A stretch of 64,000 bases of DNA from Gemmatimonadales bacterium. Lineage in GTDB: Bacteria > Gemmatimonadota > Gemmatimonadetes > Gemmatimonadales > GWC2-71-9. Below the pieces are notes generated by a model that was given only the letters and a program-made list of their open reading frames with translations, was not told the DNA's origin and made no database searches. The stretch covers positions 36,244-100,243 of the forward strand of contig DATJVM010000046.1 of NCBI GenBank assembly GCA_035501775.1, read 5' to 3'. Shown here piece after piece: positions 1,838 through 64,000 of this stretch (within the stretch, counting starts at the first letter, position 1; each line of letters opens with the position of its first letter). The position numbers and the translations under genes were made by a program.

Positions 1838-3292
1838 ATGGACCTGTTCCGCCGCAAGAGTGTCACCGACCTCCAGACCGAGGCGCTGACCGACAACAGC
1901 CTGAAGCGAGCCCTGAGCGCGTGGAATCTGACCCTGCTCGGCATCGGTGCCATCATCGGCACCGGCATCTTCGTGCTGACCGGGACCGTCGCCGCCCAGA
2001 ACTCCGGGCCAGCGGTCGTGCTGTCGTTCGTGCTCGCGGGCGTGGCCTCGATCTTCGCCGCGCTCTGCTACGCCGAATTCGCCTCACTGGTGCCGATGGC
2101 GGGCAGCGCCTACACCTACGGGTACGCGACGCTCGGCGAGTTCGTGGCATGGGTGATCGGGTGGGACCTGATCCTGGAGTACGCGCTGGGGGCGGTGACG
2201 GTCGCGATCGGCTGGTCGGGGTACGTCGTCTCCTTCCTGAAGGACATCGGCATCAACGTCCCGGCCAGGTTGAGCGCGGCGCACGGAGTGCCGGTGACGC
2301 TCGCGGATGGGAGCACCGTCACCTCGGTCTTCAACCTGCCGGCGGTGGTGATCATCGCCATCGTCACCACGCTCCTGGTGGTGGGGATCCGGGAATCCGC
2401 GAACGTGAACAACGTGATCGTGTTCGTGAAGGTCGCCGTGGTGATCCTGTTCATCGTGGGCGCCGCGGGCGCGGTGCACGCGGCGAACTGGCATCCCTTC
2501 ATACCGCCGCAGACGATCGGCCCCGACGGCCAGCCGGTCCGGGGCGCGTTCGGCTGGGACGGGGTGGTGGCCGGCGCCGGTGTGGTGTTCTTCGCGTACA
2601 TCGGCTTCGATGCCGTGAGCACCGCCGCCCAGGAGGCGAAGAACCCCCAGCGCGACATGCCGGTCGGCATCATCGGCTCACTTCTCATCTGTACCGTCCT
2701 CTACATCCTCGTCTCCGGCATCGCCACCGGCGTGATGTCGTATACCGAACTCAACGTTCCCGACCCGATCGCCGTGGTCGCCGACCGGGCCGGGCTCGGG
2801 TGGCTGTCGACGCTCATCAAGCTGGGCGCCATTGCCGGCCTCTCGTCGGTCATTCTCGTGATGCTGCTCGGGCAGTCCCGGGTGTTCTACAGCATGGCCC
2901 GCGACGGACTGCTGCCGCAGTTCGTCAACAACGTGCACCCGAAGTTCAAGACGCCGTGGATCACCTCCATCGTGACCGGCTTGGCCGTGGCCGTCCCCTC
3001 CGGCTGGTTCACGGTGCGGGAAGCCGGGAGCCTGGTCTCGATCGGCACCCTGCTGGCATTCGTGATCGTGTCCGTCGGCATCCTGGTGCTCCGCGTCCGC
3101 GAGCCCAATCTGGAACGGCCATTCCGGGCCCCGCTGGTCTGGGCGACCGCGCCGCTCGGCGCGATCTCCGCCGTCTACCTCATGATCCATCTCGAGATGA
3201 GGACCTGGGAACGGCTGGTGATCTGGCTGGTGATCGGGCTCGTGGTCTACTTCACCTATGGAGTACGCAACTCGCGCCTGGCCAGACGCTAG
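1838..3292 (+). CDS. APC-superfamily amino acid permease (cationic amino acid transporter-like)
   Basis: ORF 1793..3292. ATG at 1838 (MDLFRRKSV...). About 12 hydrophobic segments and APC motifs (LLGIGAIIGTGIFVLTG, FFAYIGFDAVSTAAQEAKNPQRD). Confidence 0.85.
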   Translation: MDLFRRKSVTDLQTEALTDNSLKRALSAWNLTLLGIGAIIGTGIFVLTGTVAAQNSGPAVVLSFVLAGVASIFAALCYAEFASLVPMAGSAYTYGYATLGEFVAWVIGWDLILEYALGAVTVAIGWSGYVVSFLKDIGINVPARLSAAHGVPVTLADGSTVTSVFNLPAVVIIAIVTTLLVVGIRESANVNNVIVFVKVAVVILFIVGAAGAVHAANWHPFIPPQTIGPDGQPVRGAFGWDGVVAGAGVVFFAYIGFDAVSTAAQEAKNPQRDMPVGIIGSLLICTVLYILVSGIATGVMSYTELNVPDPIAVVADRAGLGWLSTLIKLGAIAGLSSVILVMLLGQSRVFYSMARDGLLPQFVNNVHPKFKTPWITSIVTGLAVAVPSGWFTVREAGSLVSIGTLLAFVIVSVGILVLRVREPNLERPFRAPLVWATAPLGAISAVYLMIHLEMRTWERLVIWLVIGLVVYFTYGVRNSRLARR

Positions 3293-4705: not shown

Positions 4706-5839
4706 ATGTCCGAACCGCTTGCCGCGCAGGTCGCCGCCGTCCTGGGGCGCATTCAGAACCCGCGCCTCGAAAACGACCTGCTCTCCTCCGGCATGATCCG
4801 GGACCTGAACGTGAGCGAGGATGGCAAGGTCAGCTTCACCTTCCTCCTGGCGCGGGAAGATCCCGCGACCCTGGTGCGCGAGGCGCGGGCCGCCGTCCGC
4901 GCCGTTCCAGGCGTCAATCCCGCGGAGCTCAGAATCAGCGTGGTGGACCCGGGCGGGGCCGCGAAAGCCACCCACCCACCTCCAGGCCAGCCGGCTCCCG
5001 GCCAGACCCACGGCCAAGCCGGATTGGTTCCGCCCCCACCCTCGCCCAGCGACTACCCCAACCTCGGTCGCATCATCGCGATCTCGTCCGGCAAGGGCGG
5101 AGTGGGCAAGTCCACCGTGTCGGTGAACCTCGCGGTGGCCCTCGCATCCAGGGGCCATCGGGTGGGCCTCATGGACGGCGACATCTACGGGCCCAACGTG
5201 CCGAGGATGTTCGGGGTCTTCGAGAAGCCTCCGGTGGTACAGGGGAAGATCCAGCCCCTCGTGGCCTGGGGTGTGAAGCTGATGTCGCTGGGGTTCCTGG
5301 TGGATCGTGATGCTCCGGCCATCTGGCGCGGCCCGATCATCATGAAGATCGTGCAGCAGTTCCTGCGCGATGTGGACTGGGGCGACCTCGATTTCTTCAT
5401 CGTGGATCTCCCGCCCGGCACCGGGGACGCCCAACTGTCGCTGGTGCAGTCGTGCCAGGTGGCCACGGCCGTGATCGTGACCACGCCACAGGAGGTGGCC
5501 GTCGGCGACGCGCTGCGCGGCGCGCGGATGTTCGAGAAGGTGAACGTCCCGGTCTCGGGTGTCGTCGAGAACATGAGCGCCTGGACCGACCCCGCCACCG
5601 GGCACCGCCTCGAGATGTTCGGGAGCGGTGGCGGCCAGCGGCTCGCGGAGGAGCTCAAGATCCCGCTCCTGGGATCGATCCCTCTTCAGCCCGGCATGGC
5701 GGAACTCGCCGACCGCGGGAAACCCATCGTGGCCGCTGAACCCGAGAGCCCGGCCGCCAAGGCCCTCACGGCTATCGCGGACCAGCTGACCAGGGCAGGC
5801 GTGGTACGATCGGTGTCCCTCCCGGTGCTGCGCGGGTAG
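4706..5839 (+). CDS. apbC: Mrp/NBP35 (ApbC) Fe-S cluster carrier ATPase
   Basis: ORF 4694..5839. ATG at 4706 is preceded by GAGGA. Has an N-terminal DUF59-like region and the deviant Walker A SGKGGVGKST. Confidence 0.9.
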   Translation: MSEPLAAQVAAVLGRIQNPRLENDLLSSGMIRDLNVSEDGKVSFTFLLAREDPATLVREARAAVRAVPGVNPAELRISVVDPGGAAKATHPPPGQPAPGQTHGQAGLVPPPPSPSDYPNLGRIIAISSGKGGVGKSTVSVNLAVALASRGHRVGLMDGDIYGPNVPRMFGVFEKPPVVQGKIQPLVAWGVKLMSLGFLVDRDAPAIWRGPIIMKIVQQFLRDVDWGDLDFFIVDLPPGTGDAQLSLVQSCQVATAVIVTTPQEVAVGDALRGARMFEKVNVPVSGVVENMSAWTDPATGHRLEMFGSGGGQRLAEELKIPLLGSIPLQPGMAELADRGKPIVAAEPESPAAKALTAIADQLTRAGVVRSVSLPVLRG

Positions 5840-10480: not shown

Positions 10481-12003
10481 CGCTCGACAGCCTGCAGGAA
10501 TTCATCGCGGCCATCGAGGGCATCGGTGAACTGGTGCGCATCCGGGAGCCGGTCCGCGCGAGGCTCGAGGTGGCGGAGATCGCCGACCGCTGCATGAAGA
10601 GCCCCGGCGGCGGCCCGGCGCTCCTTTTCGAACACGTCGTGCTGGAAGGGGGCCGGCGGAGCGAGTGGCCGGTGGCGATCAACTTGTTCGGCTCCATGCG
10701 GCGGATGGGGCTGGCGCTGGGCGTGAGCGACCTCGACGAGATCGGCCACCGGATCAGCGACCTCCTCAATCTCAAGGTTCCCGACGGCCTGTTAGGCAAA
10801 CTGGCCATGCTTCCCAAGCTGGCTGAGGTCGCGAAGTTTCCGCCCCGCCGACGGAGCGTCCGCGCGCCGTGTCAGGAGATCGTGCTGCGGGACGCCGAGA
10901 TTGACCTCGATCGCATACCCTTTCTCACGACCTGGCCTCAGGACGCGGGGCGCTACATCACCCTGCCGATGGTGGTCACGCAAGACCCGGCGAGCGGAGT
11001 GCGGAACGTGGGGATGTATCGGGTCCAGGTACTGGGGCGCTCCACGCTGGCCATGCACTGGCAGCGACACAAGGTCGGCGCGGCCCATTGGCGGCACCTC
11101 GCCGAGCGTGGCGAGCGGATGCCGGTGGTGATCGCGGTCGGCGCGGATCCCGCCAGCGTCTACTCCGCCTCGGCCCCGCTCCCGCCCACGATCGACGAGT
11201 TTCTGTTCGCGGGCTTTCTCCGCCGGGAGCCGGTGGAACTGGTCAAGGCGGTGAGCTGCGACCTCGAGGTGCCCGCGGAATCGGAGTTCGTGATCGAGGG
11301 CTACATCGACCCGGCCGAACCTCTGGTGATGGAGGGGCCCTTCGGCGATCACACCGGGTTCTACTCGCTGGCCGACCGGTATCCCCAGGTGCACGTCACG
11401 GCCATCACCATGCGGAGTTCCCCGGTCTACGCTGCCACCCTGGTGGGGCGGCCTCCGATGGAGGACTACTACCTGGGGCACGCCACCGAGCGGATCTTCC
11501 TGCCGCTCATCCGGCTCACGATTCCCGAAATCGTGGATTACCACATGCCGGCGTACGGGATCTTCCACAACTTGGTGTTCGTCGCCATCGACAAGCAGTA
11601 CCCCGGCCAGGCGTACAAGGTGATGAACGCCCTGTGGGGCGCCGGCCTCATGTCGCTCGCCAAGGTGATCGTCGTGGTGGACCGGGACGTCAATGTGCGC
11701 GATCCGGACGAGGCGTGGTGGATTGCGCTCAACCATATTGACCCGGAGCGGGACGTTCGCTTTACGCGCGGGCCGGTGGACGTCCTGGACCATGCCAGCG
11801 AGTTCTTCACCTTCGGCACCAAGATGGGCATCGATGCCACGCGGAAATGGAAGGACGAGGGATTCTCGCGGGAGTGGCCGGACCGGATCGTCATGGACGA
11901 GGCCACTCGTCAGGCGGTTGACGCGCTGTGGCCGCGGCTCGGCATCTCGCTGCACGGATCGGGGACAATGGGTCCGCCCGGGAGAGGACCCACCACGGGC
12001 TGA
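10477..12003 (+). CDS. ubiD: UbiD-family prenylated-FMN-dependent decarboxylase (MqnL-like by context)
   Basis: 508 aa with the typical UbiD layout and sequence (ITLPMVVTQDP, GMYRVQV, GADP, EGPFGDHTGFYS). ATGA overlap with the ubiE stop. Confidence 0.9.
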   Translation: MTLDSLQEFIAAIEGIGELVRIREPVRARLEVAEIADRCMKSPGGGPALLFEHVVLEGGRRSEWPVAINLFGSMRRMGLALGVSDLDEIGHRISDLLNLKVPDGLLGKLAMLPKLAEVAKFPPRRRSVRAPCQEIVLRDAEIDLDRIPFLTTWPQDAGRYITLPMVVTQDPASGVRNVGMYRVQVLGRSTLAMHWQRHKVGAAHWRHLAERGERMPVVIAVGADPASVYSASAPLPPTIDEFLFAGFLRREPVELVKAVSCDLEVPAESEFVIEGYIDPAEPLVMEGPFGDHTGFYSLADRYPQVHVTAITMRSSPVYAATLVGRPPMEDYYLGHATERIFLPLIRLTIPEIVDYHMPAYGIFHNLVFVAIDKQYPGQAYKVMNALWGAGLMSLAKVIVVVDRDVNVRDPDEAWWIALNHIDPERDVRFTRGPVDVLDHASEFFTFGTKMGIDATRKWKDEGFSREWPDRIVMDEATRQAVDALWPRLGISLHGSGTMGPPGRGPTTG

Positions 12004-35854: not shown

Positions 35855-37498
35855 TCAGACCTTGACGCTCCAGACCGGCACGGCCTGGGCCCGGTTCTTC
35901 ACGCTGAGCGGCTCGCGGGTGTCGACCGGAGGCTTCTGTTTGAGCACCTGGTAGAGGGGGTCGCTGATCAGGATCTCTCCCCCCTTGGCGTTGGAGCAGA
36001 GCCGGCTCGCGACGTTGACCGCATCCCCGATGACGGTGTATTCGAGCCGGAGGTGGCTGCCGATGTTGCCCGCGAACGTGTCGCCGTAGTTGATCCCGAT
36101 GCCCACGCTGATCGTGGGCCGTCCCTGGGCGGCCCACTGCTCGTTGAGGGCGTGGATGGCGCGCTGCATGGCGATCGCGGCCTGCACCGCGCGGTCGGGG
36201 TCATCGGCGTGGGGGATGGGCGCGCCCCACAGCGCCATGATCGCGTCGCCGATGAATTTGTCGAGCGTCCCCCCGTTGGCGAAGATGATATCCACCATCT
36301 CCGTGAAATAGTCCGAGAGCAGGCTCGCGATCGAGTCCGGACTCATGTGCTCGGACATCGTGGTGAAGCCGCGGATGTCGGAGAAGAGAATCGTGACCGG
36401 CCGCTTGTCGCCGCCGAGCTTCACTGCGCCCTGCTGCTGCGCGATCTCCGCGGCCACGTTGGGGGCGAAGTACCGCTCGAAGTTGGAGCGGACCATGGCC
36501 TCGCGCTGAATCTGCTCCGCGAACCGGCTGTTCTTGATGGCGATGGCGGCCAGCCCGCCGAACGCAATCAGGAACTGCAGATCCTCGTCGCTGAACGAGT
36601 TCGTGGCCGTCAGATTGTCGACATAGAGAATGCCCAGCACCATTTCCGCGCTGGCCATGAGGGGAATGCACATCGCGCTCCGGACGCTCTGGAGCAGGAT
36701 GGACTGCCCGCCCTTGAAGCGGTCATCGGCCACGGCATTGTCCGTGAGGATCGCCACCCGCTCTTCGACCGCCTTCCGCGCGATGGAGCGCGGCACGTGC
36801 TGAGCCGAGGCATCGCCCAGGCGGCTCTTGGAGACCCGCGGCACCAGCTCCTTGGAGTCGGTGGCCAGCAGGACCGACACCCGGTCCACGCCCATCACGT
36901 CGAACGTGGTTTCAACCACGCGGCCGAGCAGCTTGTCGAGATCCAGCTCGCCTGACAACTTCTGTGAGACATCGAGCAGCAGGGACAGCTTCTTGGCGTT
37001 GCGTTCCGCGGTGCTCGCTCCCGCGACCTTGAGCTGGCCGGCGCCACCGGCCGTTGAATCCGTCGGCTTCACCGAGCTCGGCGTCCCGACCGCGGCCGCC
37101 GCCACGTCGCCCACGATCACCGCCGGCACCCCGCCGCTCATGGCGATCTGCTTGACGATGGTCCCGCCTGGCTGCGGCAGATTCTGGCCCGTGATGTGGC
37201 GGCCGGTGCCCATGTCAGGCGACTTGAGCTGGAAGACGACCTTCCCGAACGTGACCGAGTCCCCGGGCTCGAGGGTGGCCTCGGTGACCCGCTCCCCGTT
37301 GATGAATGTTCCGTTGGAGCTTCCCAGATCCTTGAGCGCCACGCCCTTCTGGTTGACCGTGAGCTCGGCGTGACGACGGCTGATGGTGGGATCGAAGATG
37401 GGGATGTCGCTCGTCACGGCGCGGCCCACCACGTACACGTGGCCCGCGGCCAGCTCGAAATCCTGGTCCCCGGTGAAGGAGATGAGCTTGAGCGTCAT
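35855..37498 (-). CDS. FHA - GAF - class III adenylate/guanylate cyclase
   Basis: N-terminal FHA (GRAVTSDIPIFDPTISRRHAEL...GSSNGTFING), a central GAF-like region, and a C-terminal cyclase (ILFSDIRGFTTMSE, FIGDAIMALWGAP). Confidence 0.85.
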   Translation of the reverse strand: MTLKLISFTGDQDFELAAGHVYVVGRAVTSDIPIFDPTISRRHAELTVNQKGVALKDLGSSNGTFINGERVTEATLEPGDSVTFGKVVFQLKSPDMGTGRHITGQNLPQPGGTIVKQIAMSGGVPAVIVGDVAAAAVGTPSSVKPTDSTAGGAGQLKVAGASTAERNAKKLSLLLDVSQKLSGELDLDKLLGRVVETTFDVMGVDRVSVLLATDSKELVPRVSKSRLGDASAQHVPRSIARKAVEERVAILTDNAVADDRFKGGQSILLQSVRSAMCIPLMASAEMVLGILYVDNLTATNSFSDEDLQFLIAFGGLAAIAIKNSRFAEQIQREAMVRSNFERYFAPNVAAEIAQQQGAVKLGGDKRPVTILFSDIRGFTTMSEHMSPDSIASLLSDYFTEMVDIIFANGGTLDKFIGDAIMALWGAPIPHADDPDRAVQAAIAMQRAIHALNEQWAAQGRPTISVGIGINYGDTFAGNIGSHLRLEYTVIGDAVNVASRLCSNAKGGEILISDPLYQVLKQKPPVDTREPLSVKNRAQAVPVWSVKV

Positions 37499-52174: not shown

Positions 52175-52818
52175 GGGGGACCCTCCTTCGTGGGGGCCAC
52201 GGCCAACAAGCTCTCGCCCAGCTCGCCGAGCCCTTCGCCGCTGGTACTGCTCGTAAGCTGGAGCTGTTCCTCCGGGAGCGCCAGCATGGCCTGGAGCGCC
52301 TGCAGTCGCCGACGCCGTTGGGCAAAGGGCAGCTTGTCCGCCTTGGTGAGGGCCACGAGAACCGGGAGTCCGCGGGCCGCCAGAGCATCGCCGTGGGCCA
52401 GGTCCTCGCGCGTCGGGTCGTGACGGATATCGAGCAGCCACAGGACGGCCGTGAGGGTCTTTCTCCGGACCAGGACATCCTGAATCAGGCGCTGGTAGCG
52501 GCGTTGCTCGCCCTGGGAGACCCTGGTGAAACCGTACCCCGGCAGGTCCAGCAGGTACAGGGTCGGGAGCTCGAAGACGTTGATGAAGGCGGTGCGACCG
52601 GGGCGGCCACTCACCCGCGCCAGCGACCGCCCCAGCAGCGCGTTGAGGAGACTCGACTTCCCCACGTTAGACCGGCCGAGGAGCGCGATCTCGGGGCGGG
52701 CCGGGCTGAGCCGGTGGGTCGCGTCCGGGAAGCTGCCGACGAACCGGACGGGGAGGTGCGCCAGAGGGGCCGTGCTTTCCTGCGCGGGGGCATACACCGA
52801 AGGGCGGGAGGTGCGCAT
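52171..52818 (-). CDS. engB: Ribosome biogenesis GTPase YsxC/EngB
   Basis: ORF 52171..53004, ATG at 52818. G1 GRSNVGKSSLLNAL, G3 DLPGYG, G4 TKADK. Confidence 0.9.
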   Translation of the reverse strand: MRTSRPSVYAPAQESTAPLAHLPVRFVGSFPDATHRLSPARPEIALLGRSNVGKSSLLNALLGRSLARVSGRPGRTAFINVFELPTLYLLDLPGYGFTRVSQGEQRRYQRLIQDVLVRRKTLTAVLWLLDIRHDPTREDLAHGDALAARGLPVLVALTKADKLPFAQRRRRLQALQAMLALPEEQLQLTSSTSGEGLGELGESLLAVAPTKEGPP

Positions 52819-52937
52819 GGTCCGCTGATCGATCCCGGGAGAGCTTCCGGCGAGAAGCGATGCGAGGGATCTCCGGCGGGCCGTCCCCGGAGATCCCTCG
52901 GTTGCGGCGTGATCACTCGGCCGCGCCCCGCCGCGAG

Positions 52938-54182
<1,245 letters not shown>

Positions 54183-54265
54183 GCGCCCGGGACCCGTGGT
54201 CTTAGTGTAACGGGAGGAGAGTGCAGGGAATCATGCCCCGTCCCTCCACCCCCGTCAAGGGACCG

Positions 54266-54874
54266 TCACTTCGCCGGCTGAATCTCGGTCCGCTTCGTGA
54301 TGACATTGTCGATGAGCCCGTATTCGCGGGCCTCCTCCGCCGACATGAACCGGTCGCGGTCCATGTCGCGCTCGATCGTCTCGACCGGCTGGCCCGTGTG
54401 CTGCGCGTAGAGTCCGTTGAGCTTGGAGCGCAGATAGAGAATCTCCCGCGCCTGGATCTCGATGTCGGCCGCGGTCCCCTGCGCCCCGCCTGACGGCTGG
54501 TGGATCATGATTCGTGAGTGAGGCAAGGCGCTGCGCTTGCCCCTGACGCCCGCCGCGAGCAGGAAGGAGCCCATCGAGGCCGCCATCCCCATGCAGATGG
54601 TGTTCACCGGGGCCTTGAGGTACTGCATCGTGTCGTAGATCGCGAGTCCGCTGGAAACGATCCCGCCCGGCGAGTTGAGGTAGAGATAGATGTCGCGCTC
54701 GGGATTGTCTGCCTCCAGAAACAGCAGCTGCGCGATCACGATATTCGCCACGTCATCGTTGATCGGCGCGCCGAGGAAGACAATCCGGTCCATCAGCAGC
54801 CGCGAGAAGATGTCGTAGGACCGCTCGCCGCGGCTCGACCGCTCGATGACGTAAGGAGGATATAGAGTGGCCAT
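54266..54874 (-). CDS. clpP: ATP-dependent Clp protease proteolytic subunit
   Basis: [11 protein letters not shown], active-site Ser context [14 protein letters not shown]. Confidence 0.97.
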
Positions 54875-54882
54875 GCGTGGCC

Positions 54883-56130
54883 TCAGGCCTCGACAACTGT
54901 GGATTGGGCGAGGAGCCAGGCGAATGCCTTCTCCTCCGTGATGGACCGCTCCAGCTCGCGGAGGCGGCCCGCCTTCTCGAGCTGACTGTACAACTGTCCC
55001 GCGGAAACGTGCCGCTCCTGGGCCAGGGACGAAACCCGCTCGTCCAGCTCGGCCTCGGTGGCCGCCAGCTTCTCCCGCTCGACCACGGCGTCGAGTACCA
55101 GCTCCCGGCGCACCTGCTGCTCGGCCACGGGGCGGAACTCGCCCTGGAACGTCTCGAACTGTTCCGCCGGAATCTTGTACGCCTCCATGTAGCCCCGCAC
55201 CAGCCGTGTCACCAGCGACGCCGGTGCCGGCACCGCGTTGGCCGCGTAAAGCTGCTGCAGCAGCTCCTGGCGCACCCCGGCGTCGGCCGAGGCCTTCGCC
55301 TCCGCCTCCAGGTCCTCGCGGAGCCGCGCCCGGAGCGCATCCACCGTTTCGAAATCTCCCACCGCGCGGGCGAAGGCATCGTCCAGGACCGGGAGCTCCT
55401 GCCGCTTGACCTCGTGCAACGTGATCCGCACTCGCCGGGACTGGCCGCGGCGGCTCTCGTCCGGGTGATCGTCAGGGAAACGGACGTCGGTGTCGACCGT
55501 TTCGCCCGGTCCCATCCCCATCACTTTCTCTTCGATGTCTGGCAGGGCGCGGCCCTCGCCCAGCACCACCGTGTATGGCTGCGGCGGACCCAGCGTCTCG
55601 CCATCGTACGAGGCGACCTCGAGACGCACCAGCTGGCCGGGGGACGGCCGCTCCCCTTCAACCGGCAGCCAGGACGCCTGACGCTCGCGCAGGTCCCGGA
55701 GCTTCTCCTCAACGTCCTCGTCCGTCACCGCCTTCACCTGGCGCCGAATGGTGAACCCGCCGGTCCGGCTCAGGGAGACGTCGGGACGCACCTCCACGTG
55801 GAACTCGAATTCGAGAGGCTTCCCCTCCTCGAACTTGAGATCGTGGATGTGCGGCTCCGCGATTGGCTTGAGGTCCTGGGCCTTGAGGGCCGTGTCCCAG
55901 CTCTCGCGGATCAGTTCCTCCAACACGCTCTGCCGGATTGCCTCGCCAAACCGACGCCGGACAACCGCCTCCGGGGCCTTGCCTGGCCGAAAACCGGGCA
56001 GCCTGGCCCTCTGACTATAGTATCGGACGGCCTTGGTCTCGGCCTGCAGGATCCGGTCCAGTGGAACCGTTACCTGCAAGGACTTGGAGGCGGCGTCTTC
56101 CTTTGTTTTGACGATTGAGATGTCCGACAT
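54883..56130 (-). CDS. tig: Trigger factor
   Basis: ORF 54883..56139, ATG at 56130. Ribosome-binding motif GFRPGKAP, in conserved tig-clpP-clpX order. Confidence 0.95.
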
Positions 56131-56241
56131 GGGCGGCAATCTACCCGGGCCTGTCCCCGGGGGTCAAATGAACCTGCCCGGTTGCCGATAGTGGGAAGGA
56201 GGTGGAGTGGGGCTGCTTAACCCTTTGCTTGAGAACGACCT

Positions 56242-60325: not shown

Positions 60326-60375
60326 TGCGAACGCCGGGACTCGAACCCGGACGGGTTGCCCCACAGGATCCTAAG
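60326..60375 (-). other. 3-prime half of a tRNA-Leu(UAG)-like gene (anticodon loop to discriminator base) with no 5-prime half: putative att core/junction
   Basis: The minus strand reads CTTAGGA-TCCTG-TGGGGCAACCCGTC-CCGGGTTCGAGTCCCGG-CGTTCGC-A. That is anticodon loop, 3-prime anticodon stem, long variable arm, T-arm and acceptor 3-prime strand. The complementary acceptor strand (GCGAACG) and D-arm are absent upstream. Confidence 0.7.
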
Positions 60376-60493
60376 AAACGCTTCACGCTGTGACTAGACG
60401 TGACTCGGTTGGAAGCGGATGACTTAGACGTCGGAACTAGTGCCTAGTTGTGACAGGGAGTGACACCGGCGCTGCATTGGGGTTGCATTCCCT

Positions 60494-60536
60494 ACAAAGA
60501 AACTCGCCCCGATGCCCTTACGGGTCCGGGGCGAGT
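60494..60536 (-). terminator. Intrinsic terminator closing the minus-strand cassette
   Basis: On the minus strand a perfect 10-bp stem ACTCGCCCCG/CGGGGCGAGT with a 15-nt loop is followed by TTCTTTGT. It lies 18 nt after the stop of ORF 60555..60773. Confidence 0.65.
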
Positions 60537-60554
60537 GGCTTCCCCTCGGTCAGA

Positions 60555-60773
60555 CTATGGCTGGTAGCGAATCAGGTCAACGCTTGCCGGTGGCAGCGGC
60601 AGGTGGGCAAGGAAGAATGGCTGCACTGCCGTGGAGGTCAGTCGCGTTCCTGCAAGCGGATCGCTTACGGAATAGTTCGCCGCGCTGGGCGCCCACAGCC
60701 CCGCAGACACAAATAGCGGATCAAGAGACTCGATTGTATGGGGCGTGTCGTCGATCATCATAGTTGAGTCCAA
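60555..60773 (-). CDS. Possible 72-aa protein of unknown function (fourth cassette gene)
   Basis: ATG start overlaps the SDH protease 3-prime end by 16 nt, and the terminator lies just downstream. I recognised no family. Confidence 0.3.
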   Translation of the reverse strand: MDSTMMIDDTPHTIESLDPLFVSAGLWAPSAANYSVSDPLAGTRLTSTAVQPFFLAHLPLPPASVDLIRYQP

Positions 60774-61744
60774 CCTTCCCGGATAACCTGCATCTGGACG
60801 CCCTGTGGCGCTAGGGCGGCACGACCCTCAGTCTGAAAACCGTCCAGCCTTCCTGCCGACTCGATGTAGGCCCGGTCGAGCTTAAACGGGTACGGGTTCG
60901 TGGTTGCCAGTGCGGCCAAAGGGTTAAATGGCGCACGCAACTCCAGGTCTGCTTCGTATTGTTGCAGCAAATCCACAAGCGCCTGCTCAAGTTTCGACTC
61001 CGGCTCCTCAACCTTGAGCCCGATGCTCTTTGCCTCGCGCCGGGTGATAAGGTAGTCGTGCGAGTAAAGCTTTTCCGTAAGCGTTTCGATTATTCCGTCC
61101 ACCGTTGGGTCGTCGCCTTTCGTGTGAAACTGCAACAACTTGCGAGAAAGCATCCGGATCTGCGTCCGCGACCGGAATACCTGCCCTAGGGCCACCGGCC
61201 GCACGTCTGATGCCAGCTTCTCGAAAACGCTGACCATCCCGTCCTCGCCCTTGATGTCCGCCGCCTCACGCGCCAGGCTCAGGTACCCAATCACCTCCTC
61301 AACACTGACCGGGAGGGTCGGGAGGGGGGCGCCGGGTTGGATCGGCATCCCATGTACGAGGGGGTTGTAGGGCCCGTTGGTGGAGGGGTCCACTGGAGAA
61401 AGCTGCCCCTCCGGGAGCATGATGATCCGGTCGGCGCCCAAGGCAACGAGCGTCCCGGCGCTTTGGCAACGAAAGGGAACAAGCAGAGTGAACTCGTTGC
61501 AATACTCTCGGATCAGCCCCACTAGACGGAACGCCGACATCACGTCGCCGCCGAGTGTGTAGAGGAATAGATCCAATTTCGGCTGCTTGCCGATTAGCCG
61601 AAGATGTCGCGACGCGAGCGGGATCAGATCGGCCGCGACACGCGTTTCCATACCCTGTCGATCGCCGAGCACGATCGTCAGGACCCGACTACCTCGGGCT
61701 TTCTCGATCCGCTGAAGCGCTGCTACACGAGTATCTCGCGGCAC
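60758..61744 (-). CDS. SDH-family (serine dehydrogenase proteinase) ClpP/SppA-fold serine protease
   Basis: The stretch LTIVLGDRQGMETRVAADLIP...KLDLFLYTLGGDVMSAFRLVGLIREYCNEFTLLVPFRCQSAGTLVALGADRIIMLPEGQLSPVDPS matches my memory of the SDH family core, with the Ser in QSAGT. GTG start is preceded by AGGAAG at 6-nt spacing. Confidence 0.8.
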   Translation of the reverse strand: MPRDTRVAALQRIEKARGSRVLTIVLGDRQGMETRVAADLIPLASRHLRLIGKQPKLDLFLYTLGGDVMSAFRLVGLIREYCNEFTLLVPFRCQSAGTLVALGADRIIMLPEGQLSPVDPSTNGPYNPLVHGMPIQPGAPLPTLPVSVEEVIGYLSLAREAADIKGEDGMVSVFEKLASDVRPVALGQVFRSRTQIRMLSRKLLQFHTKGDDPTVDGIIETLTEKLYSHDYLITRREAKSIGLKVEEPESKLEQALVDLLQQYEADLELRAPFNPLAALATTNPYPFKLDRAYIESAGRLDGFQTEGRAALAPQGVQMQVIREGWTQL

Positions 61745-61786
61745 CGAATACTTCCTAGGAAGAGAGCTAACAACTTACCACCATCT

Positions 61787-62563
61787 TCATGGTGGCGGTG
61801 GTATAGGCGTTTCAGCCGTCGTCGTGGGGTCAATCTTACGCGCCCACGTCTGGATGTGATCTTCGAGTTCCCCGAGACACTGATCGTGTTCCTGGAATTC
61901 GGACGGCTCAAGCTCGTGGCCAACGACATCCTTCCCGCTGACCGTCAGCTGCATGATCTGGACGTCTCCCCCAATCCCGCCGGGGTTAGTCTGGATTGCG
62001 TGGCGCATCGCCCAGAGCGCGCCGAGGGTTCCGTCTGCGAGACTGGGCGTCTTGTTCTTCCAGAGCACTCGGCGGACGAAATACATGAACGGTTCTGCTA
62101 AGTGCTGCCCACTCCCTGCGGTAGTGAATGTCAGCGGGTCTGGCCCAATGAACATCGGTTGGCAAGAATGCGCGACACTCACTAAGCAGGGAGTTGAGTC
62201 GAGGGGATAGGCAACAACCAGCTGAAAGCCTGCCTGTTGGAGGACGATCTGCGAATTGTTTTGGGCCTTCGCCTGTTGTTCGGCGAGCTTCCATTCGTCC
62301 TCAACCAGCGGCTTAATCGCCTCTCGCAGCTTTGTCAGGGAGCGGGCAACTGGCCCAGTCCGAAAGGACTTCATGTGGTCGTGGAGCGCGCCACACAAAC
62401 GCTGCCCAAAGGGTACTGAGCCAGCGACCCCGACGATGAGCGGGTCTGAGGTATGGAGGGTCAGCTTGCGCCCGAGCGGCAGGGCGGTGGGTCCAGTGGA
62501 AACCGCACTATCAGCTGCGACGACGATGCCATCGTGGCACCGTACTCCGATAATGAGGGTCAC
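61787..62563 (-). CDS. Proteasome beta-subunit/HslV-like Ntn-hydrolase (Thr protease) homolog
   Basis: (f)M-TLIIGVRCHDGIVVAADSAV...GRKLTL...IVGVAGS...TTAGSGQ. Thr is the first residue after the initiator. Asp at mature position 17, Lys at 32 and the GSG motif fit the T1/D17/K33/S129-G130 proteasome pattern. Confidence 0.75.
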   Translation of the reverse strand: MTLIIGVRCHDGIVVAADSAVSTGPTALPLGRKLTLHTSDPLIVGVAGSVPFGQRLCGALHDHMKSFRTGPVARSLTKLREAIKPLVEDEWKLAEQQAKAQNNSQIVLQQAGFQLVVAYPLDSTPCLVSVAHSCQPMFIGPDPLTFTTAGSGQHLAEPFMYFVRRVLWKNKTPSLADGTLGALWAMRHAIQTNPGGIGGDVQIMQLTVSGKDVVGHELEPSEFQEHDQCLGELEDHIQTWARKIDPTTTAETPIPPPP

Positions 62564-62567
62564 TCAG

Positions 62568-63032
62568 TCAGTCGCGGAAGACGCTCTTGGCGCGCATGGC
62601 CGGGTAGGCCTCATAGATGGCGCGCACGAGGTCGTTGAACGGTAGGGACTGGGCCCACCGCACAACATCGTTCAGGTAGGCAAGGCCGTCCTGGGGAGCG
62701 CGCGTAGCGATGTGCTGCGCAGCTTGCTGCCCCTCTGGCGTCAGCTGATAGCGGCGTAAGCTGTTGCCGCGCGAATAGTCCACGGAGATGAAATCGGTTA
62801 GTGCGAACAGGTCTGCGTCGTTGTAGATCTGTCGGCAAAATGGGCCGTAGTTGTACGGCTCGAAGCGGTAGAATCCCGGGTGGACCGTCGCCTTCTTCCT
62901 CTCGCCGAGGAGGAAGAGAACCTTCTGGAGCTGAACCGGGGTAAGGCCGCTGCGCGACCGCTCAAGTGCGAGCAGCAGCCAATCGCGCGGTTCCAACCGT
63001 GGCGATCGGACCTTATTCGGCGTCTTGGCCAT
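62568..63032 (-). CDS. DUF4065/Panacea (SocA-like) domain protein, predicted wHTH
   Basis: ORF 62568..63209. The ATG at 63032 has GGAG 9 nt upstream. LTPVQLQKVLFLLGE...FEPYNYGPFCRQIYNDADLF resembles the kLqKLLY...W.yGPv..evY signature of DUF4065. The stop lies 4 nt before the next gene's GTG. Confidence 0.5.
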   Translation of the reverse strand: MAKTPNKVRSPRLEPRDWLLLALERSRSGLTPVQLQKVLFLLGERKKATVHPGFYRFEPYNYGPFCRQIYNDADLFALTDFISVDYSRGNSLRRYQLTPEGQQAAQHIATRAPQDGLAYLNDVVRWAQSLPFNDLVRAIYEAYPAMRAKSVFRD

Positions 63033-63057
63033 GAGGCGGGCTCCAGCAAAGGGGCTG

Positions 63058-63092
63058 CTTGTGAAAATAGTCACAAGCCAAGCTACCGGCAA
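63058..63092 (-). promoter_or_regulatory. Sigma-70-like promoter overlapped by a perfect inverted repeat (operator candidate)
   Basis: On the minus strand: TTGCCG (63092-63087), a 17-nt spacer, TATTTT (63069-64). The IR CTTGTGA-N6-TCACAAG (63077-63058) spans the -10, about 25 nt upstream of ATG 63032. Confidence 0.35.
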
Positions 63093-63171: not shown

Positions 63172-64000
63172 TCATATTCCCGCAACGGGCTCCTTGAATG
63201 GCCCGTCAAACCGCGCGGTTCCGTCGGCGGCTACGGCCAGGACGCATGCATCGAGGCGGTCCGGGCTGCGCGCGATGATCGCCCGCCACTCCGCCTTGCT
63301 GATGATCTGGAGCTTCCCGGAGGAGTTCGTGAATCCCCGACAGGTCCGGAGCTCCTCCTCCAGCAGCGGGTCGGGCGGCAGCGCCACCAGCCCCCGCACC
63401 AACATCGTCCGGAACCGGTCGTAGGCCTCGGCCCGGAGGTTTGCGTACCGGATCACCGCGCCCTCCTCCTCGGGGCGCTTCGAGGCGATGAACGCCGTGC
63501 AGGGGTAGCCCGCCTCGCGGAGCCGGTCGCCGAGCCCTTTCCCGACGCCGATCTCATCTACGACCACGGAGGTCGGTGGCCCCAGCGCGGTGAGCGGGTC
63601 GCCCATGATCCTGACCGGGAACCCGGCGGCCATCAGCGCGGTTGCCCGGGCGGTCTCGCGGATCTTCGGCGGGACGTGCAGCTCGCGGAAGATGTCGATG
63701 ATCCGCCCCACCGACCTCATGGTGTCCGACTCCCGCCACGTGATCAGCCGTTCCACGAACCCGCCCCGCGCGACGGCGATCACCGATTCATCGCCGGCTT
63801 CTGAGGCCCCGACGTCCACGCCCAGGACACGGCGCTTCCGCTGCTGCGTGACCTGGAAGGCCGCGTTCTCGTACCGAGCGAAGGCGGCGGCGATGGCCTC
63901 GGGCGGGAAGAAGGCGTCGGAGGGCGACTCCGGGAACCGCGCGCAGACCCGCGACTGGAAGACCGCCGACTCCTCGCCGTAGGTCCAGCGGAGATTGTCG
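63172..64000 (-). CDS. terL: Phage terminase large subunit, C-terminal (nuclease) part; N-terminus beyond the window
   Basis: The frame stays open from 63819 up to base 64000 (...YGEESAVFQSRVCARFPESPSDAFFPPEAIAAAFARYENAAFQVTQQRKRRVLGVDVGASEAGDESVIAVA...VVVDEIGVGKGLGDRLREAG...YANLRAEAYDRFR...SSGKLQIISKAEWRAIIARSPDRLDACVLAVA). This is the classic RNaseH-like terminase nuclease pattern. Confidence 0.75.
   Translation of the reverse strand, partial: DNLRWTYGEESAVFQSRVCARFPESPSDAFFPPEAIAAAFARYENAAFQVTQQRKRRVLGVDVGASEAGDESVIAVARGGFVERLITWRESDTMRSVGRIIDIFRELHVPPKIRETARATALMAAGFPVRIMGDPLTALGPPTSVVVDEIGVGKGLGDRLREAGYPCTAFIASKRPEEEGAVIRYANLRAEAYDRFRTMLVRGLVALPPDPLLEEELRTCRGFTNSSGKLQIISKAEWRAIIARSPDRLDACVLAVAADGTARFDGPFKEPVAGI

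Follow-up and report, generated by a model that had tools for sequence, protein, structure and literature searches.

The Panacea protein SocA delivers its toxin, SocB, to the protease ClpXP, and the C-terminal domain of DarG neutralizes DarT by direct binding. A small first gene joined to the second through ATGA coupling is typical of type II toxin-antitoxin (TA) pairs. Among the bacterial relatives of the proteasome, HslV is activated by HslU, and dozens of further homolog families are known as sequences alone. Fuchs, Alva, and Lupas (2021, PMC8665760) described 22 new families of proteasome homologs and found no genomic context or co-occurrence pattern for them. Here, we analyze a four-gene cassette of a Gemmatimonadales bacterium (GenBank assembly GCA_035501775.1, contig DATJVM010000046.1, forward-strand positions 36,244 to 100,243), in which the gene for a divergent proteasome-like hydrolase directly follows the gene for a small winged-helix protein. 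All positions refer to this 64-kb stretch, which we call the window. The cassette is read on its minus strand within positions 60494 to 63092, where four open reading frames (ORFs) run in the same direction in the order A, B, C, and D; loci fetched for comparison carry L numbers. An earlier, sequence-only reading took the cassette for a single four-gene system. Our comparison makes it highly probable that it is instead two independent modules, A-B and C-D, placed side by side.

A strictly paired A-B module

Gene A (62568-63032, minus strand, ATG start) encodes a small winged-helix and helical protein of 154 amino acids (aa), the obligate upstream partner of B. Gene B (61787-62563, minus strand, GTG start) encodes a divergent proteasome-beta-type N-terminal-Thr hydrolase of 258 aa, whose product begins MTL and has no propeptide. 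A scan of metagenome contigs with an alignment of B recovered 153 stretches encoding a B relative, and 80 of these loci were fetched. Hidden Markov model (HMM) searches show that each of the 77 loci with upstream DNA has an A homolog directly upstream of B, in the same orientation; in the remaining three, B lies at the contig edge. The same arrangement is found in L002 to L007, with about a dozen loci in all reached through exact protein look-up, and four look-ups that started from A homologs (L110/111, L112/113, L135, and L136) returned the A-B pairing each time. The association of A with B is about as strict as gene linkage can be. The step from the A stop to the B start is -4 nt in 25 loci, +3 in 18, and -1 in 12, and it never exceeds 19 nt, a spacing from which we take the two genes to be translationally coupled. 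The pairwise distances of A and B also covary (Mantel r 0.56, p 0.001), and this clade of A seems to keep to a single partner instead of pairing promiscuously.

The pair travels without fixed company. Among 150 ORFs neighboring A-B, no Pfam family occurs more than twice, and neither Pfam nor PADLOC reveals a conserved third gene; no AAA+ partner was found there. The GC content of the loci ranges from 27% to 67%. In L112, the pair belongs to an integrative element that carries integrase, helix-turn-helix (HTH), DnaG zinc-ribbon, and DUF3987 genes and is bounded by tRNA-Lys repeats. Integrative elements also hold the pair in L136, together with integrase, AAA_25, and methyltransferase genes, and in L003, together with an integrase gene and a methyltransferase-Mrr gene. 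A plain listing of the other neighbors includes IS1 elements, relaxase and type IV secretion system genes, type II restriction-modification (RM) systems, DRT4/6, PD-T7-4, and PDC-S01/S02. A-B also shows the type II TA layout, being bicistronic with a small first gene, an overlapping or coupled second gene, and variable, often mobile contexts. Taken together, the pair bears the signature of a putative autonomous, horizontally mobile two-gene module of the TA or small-defense type. One A-B pair (L004 6122-7732, L005, and L006) adjoins the genes of a large multi-GAF protein and a response-regulator/TCAD9 protein; TCAD9 denotes "ternary complex-associated domain 9," which is linked to NTP-dependent conflict systems.

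Protein B falls just short of the Pfam Proteasome family (PF00227; 4.5e-4, 20.3 bits versus a gathering cutoff of 22.4 bits), a family assigned to seven of the nine other B homologs in their precomputed annotation. A profile of 10 family members matches proteasome beta subunits in the Protein Data Bank (PDB) at 1.6e-9 and HslV at 3.5e-5, and its alignment brings Thr1, Asp17, Lys33, Gly47, and Gly-Ser-Gly into register with the beta subunits. In B itself, D18, K33, G48, and G150-x-G152-Q153 are invariant in the 10 homologs and align to ADTRAT, RKI, AGT, and MGSGS of beta2, while Thr2 aligns with the mature Thr1 of the PDB beta subunits. The AlphaFold2 (AF2) model (pLDDT 86, pTM 0.83) has the alpha-beta-beta-alpha sandwich fold, and Foldseek matches it to 20S proteasome subunits and Anbu with a probability of 1.0 and TM scores of 0.6 to 0.7. 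The sequence-only reading had called B proteasome-beta/HslV-like with an apparently intact catalytic set, and the conservation of this set across the family bears that out. B is not a member of HslVU: no AAA+ gene is kept beside it, its 258 aa compare with about 175 aa for HslV, and the NCBIfam HslV model returns only 0.057 to 0.08.

The N terminus of B is as constant as its core, with Met-Thr-Leu at the start of 86 of 87 B sequences. Because the chain starts with Met-Thr and has no propeptide, removal of Met1 alone should expose the catalytic Thr, as the specificity of methionine aminopeptidase would predict. Residues 187 to 196 read R-H-x-I-x-x-N-P-G-G and, aligned by eye, occupy the position of the proteasome R-D166-x-x-S169-G-G; the His188 found there is invariant, and B may thus have an altered active-site environment at the Asp166 position. 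Searched with a B profile, a set of 1.84 billion representative proteins yields at least 557 clusters at 50% identity in the B family (E ≤ 1e-30); most of the best 150 listed are 240 to 280 aa long, and in nearly all of these the match covers the whole protein. The family is sizeable but rare. We found no B homologs in phage genomes or viral contigs and no match for B in PADLOC-DB 2.0.0 at E ≤ 1. An apparent B pseudogene in L107 proved to be a difference in gene calling, as its DNA is 100% identical to the window.

Protein A is recognizable mainly by structure. Its matches in PADLOC-DB 2.0.0 (PDC-M19A at 1.9e-11, the C terminus of Specificity_I at 6.5e-8, and DarG at 1e-3 over model positions 153 to 257) are by domain only, and no known defense system was matched in the PADLOC check that the sequence-only reading had proposed. 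A literature search returned no description of PDC-M19. NCBIfam SocA is matched at 5e-3 (16.4 bits versus a cutoff of 190 bits) and PHROG family phrog_14939 at 6e-7, and A has no match in Pfam. In the AF2 model (pLDDT 94), a helical bundle follows a winged-helix core. The best Foldseek match of this model in the PDB is to chains B/D of 7yk3, the DarTG TA complex of Mycobacterium tuberculosis (E 1.4e-4, TM 0.56 to 0.63); the entry names only the complex, and we take these chains to be the toxin-binding C-terminal domain of DarG. A sequence-profile search of A against the PDB gave nothing significant.

Two stretches of A stand out among 45 homologs. In Y-x-Y-G-P-F, residues Y60, G63, P64, and F65 are invariant and Y62 is nearly so, and the motif resembles by eye the GPV signature, which is conserved in Panacea and critical for neutralization (PMC8832971). 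The C terminus, R-A-x-S-V-F-R-D (62568-62600), is among the most conserved parts of the protein, with S150 and F152 invariant, and this tail might be an element that contacts B. A is Panacea/DarG-C-terminal-like, and membership in PF13274 is not demonstrable. The earlier description of A as a DUF4065/Panacea-like winged-HTH protein is thus supported in part, by the winged-helix core, the DarG-like fold, and the weak SocA/Panacea and PADLOC matches, but not at the Pfam threshold. The HMM and structure searches that were to accompany it support the families named for B and C, while A remains below the threshold of PF13274.

Two modules side by side

Outside copies of this island, a C homolog occurs in none of about 90 other B loci. 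Conversely, 38 independent C loci (19 from genomes, 16 viral, and 3 other) contain no B homolog and no convincing A, the nearest case being a weak Panacea-like match in L009 that lies 1.8 kb away on the other strand. The complete A-B-C-D block is limited to copies of this island (L001 and L107 to L109). L132 was considered as a C-D-A-B arrangement and rejected, as HMM searches show the 142- and 266-aa genes that follow D there to be unrelated to A and B. Since the four genes do not co-occur elsewhere, we conclude that the cassette juxtaposes independent modules.

The sequence-only reading had instead envisaged one integrated protease-based defense or TA system, with A as autoregulator or adaptor, B and C as joint effectors, and D as an accessory. 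The organization of the cassette favors such a system to some extent: the ORFs are codirectional and tightly spaced, share a low GC content, and are framed by a single promoter-like site and a single strong terminator. However, the block is absent elsewhere across the fetched B and C loci, and B and C never occur together outside this island, which removes the basis for joint effectors. The neighborhood survey proposed with that reading found A and B always together, but no conserved block of three or four genes. The B-C junction is also the sole wide gap in the cassette, with a hairpin inside, and the palindrome at its promoter precedes a C homolog where A is absent (see below). We consider a single four-gene system very improbable.

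The physical layout claimed for the cassette was confirmed on re-reading. The spacings are exact, with a 4-nt gap between A and B, a 42-nt gap between B and C, and a 16-nt overlap between C and D when D is read from TTG. The promoter-like TTGCCG (63092-63087), 17 nt, TATTTT (63069-63064) is present on the minus strand, but it is a weak sigma-70-like site that agrees with the consensus at 8 of 12 positions, and a promoter scan left it below threshold and uncalled. The hairpin CCACCAT-GAAG-ATGGTGG (61778-61795, minus strand, -12.8 kcal/mol) contains the B stop codon, is not followed by a U-run, and sits at the junction of the two modules. At the far end, a hairpin (60497-60541) and its U-run (together 60490-60541, minus strand) form an intrinsic-terminator-like structure with an 11-bp GC-rich stem, 1 bp longer than first described, an RNAfold energy of -32.6 kcal/mol, and the tail UUUCUUUG. 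A terminator scan missed the hairpin because of its 15-nt loop, and together with the tail it makes a credible candidate intrinsic terminator. The GC content of the cassette, 0.602, is visibly lower than the window mean of 0.68, as had been noted, and the lowest other 2.6-kb stretch of the window reaches 0.652.

The perfect inverted repeat over the promoter was also confirmed, with arms of 8+8. It reads GCTTGTGA-N6-TCACAAGC (63057-63078, no strand), overlaps the -10-like hexamer, and is of the CRP/FNR type; TGTGA-N6-TCACA is the consensus of the CRP/FNR family. Three perfect inverted repeats with 8-nt arms occur in this 3 kb, so the arm length alone is unremarkable. The TGTGA-N6-TCACA core is present in a single copy in the 64-kb window even with one mismatch allowed, and the fetched loci, 1.22 Mb in total, contain five such sites. 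Four of these sites are copies of this island. The fifth (L132, 506-527) lies 81 nt upstream of the closest C homolog (68% identity), on an unrelated contig without A or B. The two sites agree at 19 of 22 positions, but no relationship is seen between their flanks, and a perfect site would be expected by chance in a 270-nt upstream region with a probability of about 0.001. The L132 palindrome suggests either shared host regulation or insertion of A-B into the leader of a C-D operon.

Because L132 has the same site without A, the palindrome is not A's operator, and the proposal that it serves as the cassette's own operator, bound by A, does not stand. To judge from these two loci, it belongs with the C-D lineage or with a regulator common to both hosts, and it would most simply be read by a host regulator of the CRP/FNR family. 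Autorepression by A was considered more broadly and rejected. Inverted repeats upstream of 61 non-redundant A homologs show no clear enrichment (11% at p ≤ 0.05 versus about 5% expected), in a crude scan in which start-codon placement was imperfect and the window's own repeat was missed. Given that the palindrome is common to the nearest C-D locus, the simplest history is that A-B landed between promoter and C-D. In this lineage, A-B would thus have been inserted between the CRP-type promoter/operator and C-D, a direction that is deduced from the comparison, and the wide, hairpin-containing B-C spacer would mark the insertion junction.

The C-D module and its island

Gene C (60758-61744, minus strand, GTG start) encodes a ClpP-fold serine protease of the SDH family, 328 aa in length. 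It clears the gathering cutoff of Pfam PF01972 (4e-17, 62.6 bits versus 31.3 bits) but not the equivalog cutoff of NCBIfam NF047768, Clp_like_SDH (3e-20, 72.8 bits versus 250 bits). The ClpP-type nucleophile Ser95, in a QSAGT motif, is invariant in 29 C homologs, in agreement with the sequence-only assignment of C to this family. In PHROG, C matches phrog_11747 at 1e-35. We regard C as a distinct subfamily of about 330 aa (phrog_11747), as judged by its sequence, with a C-terminal half outside the Pfam match. Over 220 proteins in the databases, each about 330 aa long, belong to the family; our literature search found no published function for this SDH subfamily, and PADLOC-DB 2.0.0 contains no match for C at E ≤ 1.

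A TerL-like gene lies immediately upstream of the cassette, and C faintly matches the head-maturation families phrog_53 (0.009) and Clp_rel_HeadMat of NCBIfam (1e-4), so that a degraded phage head-morphogenesis module, in which TerL is followed by a prohead protease, had to be weighed. C, however, matches the SDH_protease family (4e-17) and phrog_11747 far better than either, the island holds no portal or capsid gene, and C homologs occupy moron or lysogeny-side positions. They are also nearly absent from phage genomes, with 7 weak matches in 50,697 records. The third position of codons tells the same story, with a GC content there (GC3) of 0.91 in the TerL-like gene versus 0.66 to 0.79 in A to D. 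C thus does not group with the prohead proteases, a grouping that the sequence-only reading had named as fatal to its own proposal, and the head-module explanation has next to no probability. From its relatives, C is best read as accessory cargo and not as a head protease.

The positions of C homologs are consistent with cargo of the moron type. They are found in IMG/VR prophage contigs and, in the phage-like contigs L133 and L134, where divergent gene blocks meet. In the lambdoid phage-plasmid NZ_CP081704 of Escherichia coli (L131), a C homolog with 36% identity, annotated as "serine protease" (2229-3224), lies on the opposite strand between the Q antiterminator and a lambda-family holin, a classic moron slot. 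Complete E. coli genomes contain nothing close to L122, a C locus of enterobacterial type. We therefore describe C-D as a separate, prophage-moron-type module.

Gene D (60555-60773, minus strand) is the small and variable partner of C, with 72 aa when read from TTG and 68 aa from the ATG at 60761. The latter start, preferred by gene callers, overlaps the C stop by a 4-nt ATGA, as in L132 and L133, and is the more likely one on sequence grounds. D has no match in the family libraries, its only PADLOC match being at chance level. By a rough reading of the C loci, 19 from genomes and 16 viral, a small ORF begins right at the C stop or just across it in most of them; at least L121 lacks one. Such D-like ORFs (e.g., L132 1581-1895 and L133 5755-5976, and right after the C homolog in L008 to L025 and L114 to L127) belong to several unrelated sequence groups and are highly variable and rich in S/T/A. 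In the nearest relatives of C (61 to 68% identity), the small ORF can be recognized as a D homolog by the common motif sGLWA..(9)..DPxAG.R, and D is therefore probably a real, fast-evolving gene. It may be a substrate, an inhibitor, or a specificity partner of the C protease. In L013 (2532-2954) and L017 (1928-2347), the D-like ORF is followed by a gene that resembles a Fic/Doc toxin, with the motif HxFxDxNKR typical of that group, which hints that some D-like proteins may be antitoxin-like, with the protease in a three-gene TA arrangement.

Both modules sit on a small island at a tRNA-Leu gene. Its att-type boundary in the window directly repeats, in degenerate form, the 3'-terminal 50 nt of tRNA-Leu (60326-60375, minus strand, 86% identity), as the sequence-only reading had proposed. 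This fragment came to light only when it was set against the intact tRNA-Leu of L001 and L107, which lies 5.87 kb away, past the window end; a tRNA search of the window itself found none, and Rfam gives a partial, T-arm-like match at 60331-60364. In L001, the repeats (5497-5546 and 11370-11419) are 86% identical, and their variable-arm differences are compensatory. The island spans 5465-11419 in L001 and about 6750-12700 in L107, an ENA metagenome contig that is 100% identical to the window over 11.4 kb. Its 5.87 kb hold a cI-like HTH_3 gene on the opposite strand, a DUF2299 gene, the TerL-like gene, and A to D, with no integrase, portal, capsid, or lysis gene among them. The TerL-like gene is present in the window as the 3' part of a 523-aa ORF (63172-64000, minus strand) that runs past the window end; it is context only and belongs to neither module. 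Its full-length product, taken from L107, matches phrog_2 at 5.9e-25, which confirms the terL neighbor reported earlier.

With a GC3 of 0.91, the TerL-like gene is host-like, and from this difference A to D look like younger cargo than the terminase remnant. The proposal that the cassette is cargo of an integrated element is upheld insofar as it is foreign DNA beside an att repeat. It fails for a prophage, which we rejected as an identity for this 5.87-kb island, as it lacks an integrase and structural, lysis, and replication modules. That both modules are horizontally mobile cargo of this 5.9-kb integrase-less tRNA-Leu island, with A-B being TA-like and C-D separate, strikes us as somewhat more probable than its opposite. 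The host tig-clpP-clpX cluster lies about 4 kb from the island (window, about 52500-56140; L107, 16903-20095); this nearness is probably coincidental, and the genome thus has a canonical ClpXP.

Possible roles of A-B and comparison with known systems

In the mechanism that we propose, A (about 145 aa) would bind B and hold it inactive or ungated, in the way that PanA and the C-terminal domain of DarG restrain their toxins. Loss or titration of A, for example through host shut-off or a phage trigger, would then free B as the effector, an N-terminal-Thr protease that would cleave cellular or phage proteins. Neutralization of B by A is close to an even proposition, falling slightly on the doubtful side, and we infer the toxicity of B and any defense role of A-B from the same comparisons. 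Somewhat more tentatively, A-B could represent a widespread, undescribed TA or abortive-infection class, in which a propeptide-less, proteasome-like Thr protease is restrained by a Panacea/DarG-C-terminal-like protein.

Several observations weigh against this reading. Some A-B pairs lie amid housekeeping genes, with fetched flanks free of mobile or defense genes, and the defense-type neighbors come from a plain listing rather than an enrichment measured against control genes. Pfam SocA_Panacea (PF13274) is matched by only 7 of 45 A homologs, all sub-threshold (best E, 0.084), and the weak winged-HTH matches of A (PadR, EarA, and MarR folds) also fit a DNA-binding regulator. In this island, one putative promoter and one terminator are common to all four genes, and functional cross-talk among A to D is conceivable in this particular lineage. 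Isolated proteasome subunits, moreover, are generally inactive until the complex assembles (Fuchs et al. 2021, PMC8665760). B therefore need not be intrinsically toxic, and A could be its activator or assembly factor.

This last point favors an alternative in which B is a specialized protease without toxicity and A its substrate adaptor, activator, or assembly factor, by analogy with SocA and ClpXP or HslU and HslV. The weak SocA match of A, its strongly conserved C-terminal N-S-V-F-R-D, and the pairs in housekeeping contexts are all compatible with such a role, as is the lack of a known AAA+ partner for the new homologs (Fuchs et al. 2021). However, a patchy, horizontally transferred spread over 27 to 67% GC would be unusual for a housekeeping protease, as would the occurrence of the pair within integrative elements and next to RM and DRT genes. 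Its gene order and ATGA coupling are those of type II TA pairs, and the best fold match of A is to a TA complex. We regard an adaptor or activator role as unlikely.

A different possibility is that A-B forms a regulatory switch, with A as a winged-helix repressor and B as its dedicated protease, in the manner of ImmR/ImmA of ICEBs1; such a switch would control neighboring or mobile-element genes. Foldseek does list the MarR, PadR, and ZitR regulators after DarG for the winged-helix core of A, some A homologs match PadR and EarA in Pfam, and several A-B pairs are found in integrative elements beside integrase, HTH, and primase genes. Yet the regulator matches are weak (E > 5e-3, TM about 0.4), and the crude repeat test described above gave no enrichment upstream of A homologs. 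The sole clear palindrome is the CRP-type site, which is also present in a locus lacking A, and many A-B pairs lie in non-mobile contexts without candidate genes to regulate. The switch accordingly seems to us an improbable account, and we retain the TA-like reading as the working model for A-B.

Compared with described systems, A-B most resembles PanA-PanT and SocAB, which likewise place a small antitoxin-type gene first and couple it to the gene of a larger enzyme. A has a Panacea-like QKVLFLLG ... YNYGPF pattern, which by eye may correspond to the "GPV" signature (PMC8832971), and its weak matches to SocA (5e-3) and PDC-M19A (1.9e-11) and its variable, often mobile contexts extend the likeness. 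It differs from Panacea in being sub-threshold for PF13274 and in having a proteasome-like Thr hydrolase as partner, a kind of partner that appears neither in the main text and supplements of the Panacea paper (PMC8832971) nor in the main text of NetFlax. The C-terminal domain of DarG (7yk3) is the best structural match for the A model, but A shares only 14 to 18% identity with it and has no macrodomain, and its partner is a protease and not an ADP-ribosyltransferase. ImmR/ImmA and RosmerTA likewise combine an HTH-type protein with a protease in mobile or defense contexts (PMC10440598). Their protease is the ImmA metallopeptidase, in contrast to the proteasome-like B, and in Rosmer the protease is itself the antitoxin, whereas B is more probably the effector. 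For C, the relatives are the SDH-family proteinases (PF01972 and NF047768), with which it shares an above-threshold match and the invariant Ser95; it differs in belonging to the subfamily of about 330 aa, usually with a small overlapping ORF behind it. Our analysis thus corrects the two-protease-system reading and flags an SDH protease with a small ORF as a recurrent prophage moron.

The relation of B to HslV, Anbu, BPH, and the Fuchs families is one of shared fold and catalytic residues, as B has the proteasome-beta fold, Thr1, Asp17, Lys33, Gly47, and GSG, and its long C-terminal helix (H220-244) resembles the H5 of Anbu/WPH. It differs in having no HslU or other AAA+ partner, and at the Asp166 position it seems, by eye, to carry an invariant His. 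A literature search on proteasome-like toxins found nothing relevant, and as far as we could find, no one has described the strict pairing in which a Panacea/DarG-C-terminal-like protein accompanies a divergent hydrolase of the proteasome type. To our knowledge, it is the first genomic-context clue for such an orphan bacterial proteasome homolog. One of these families, with at least 557 clusters, now has an invariant, coupled partner akin to toxin-binding antitoxin domains, which makes it possible to test whether a proteasome-fold protease can be the toxin, or the effector of abortive infection, with a small protein and not an AAA+ unfoldase as its gate. If this is true, A-B would provide a first function and regulatory logic for an orphan bacterial proteasome homolog and would add proteasome-fold proteolysis to the activities of toxins. 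Next to the TA systems described so far, A-B would then be a TA-like pair with an unprecedented effector fold.

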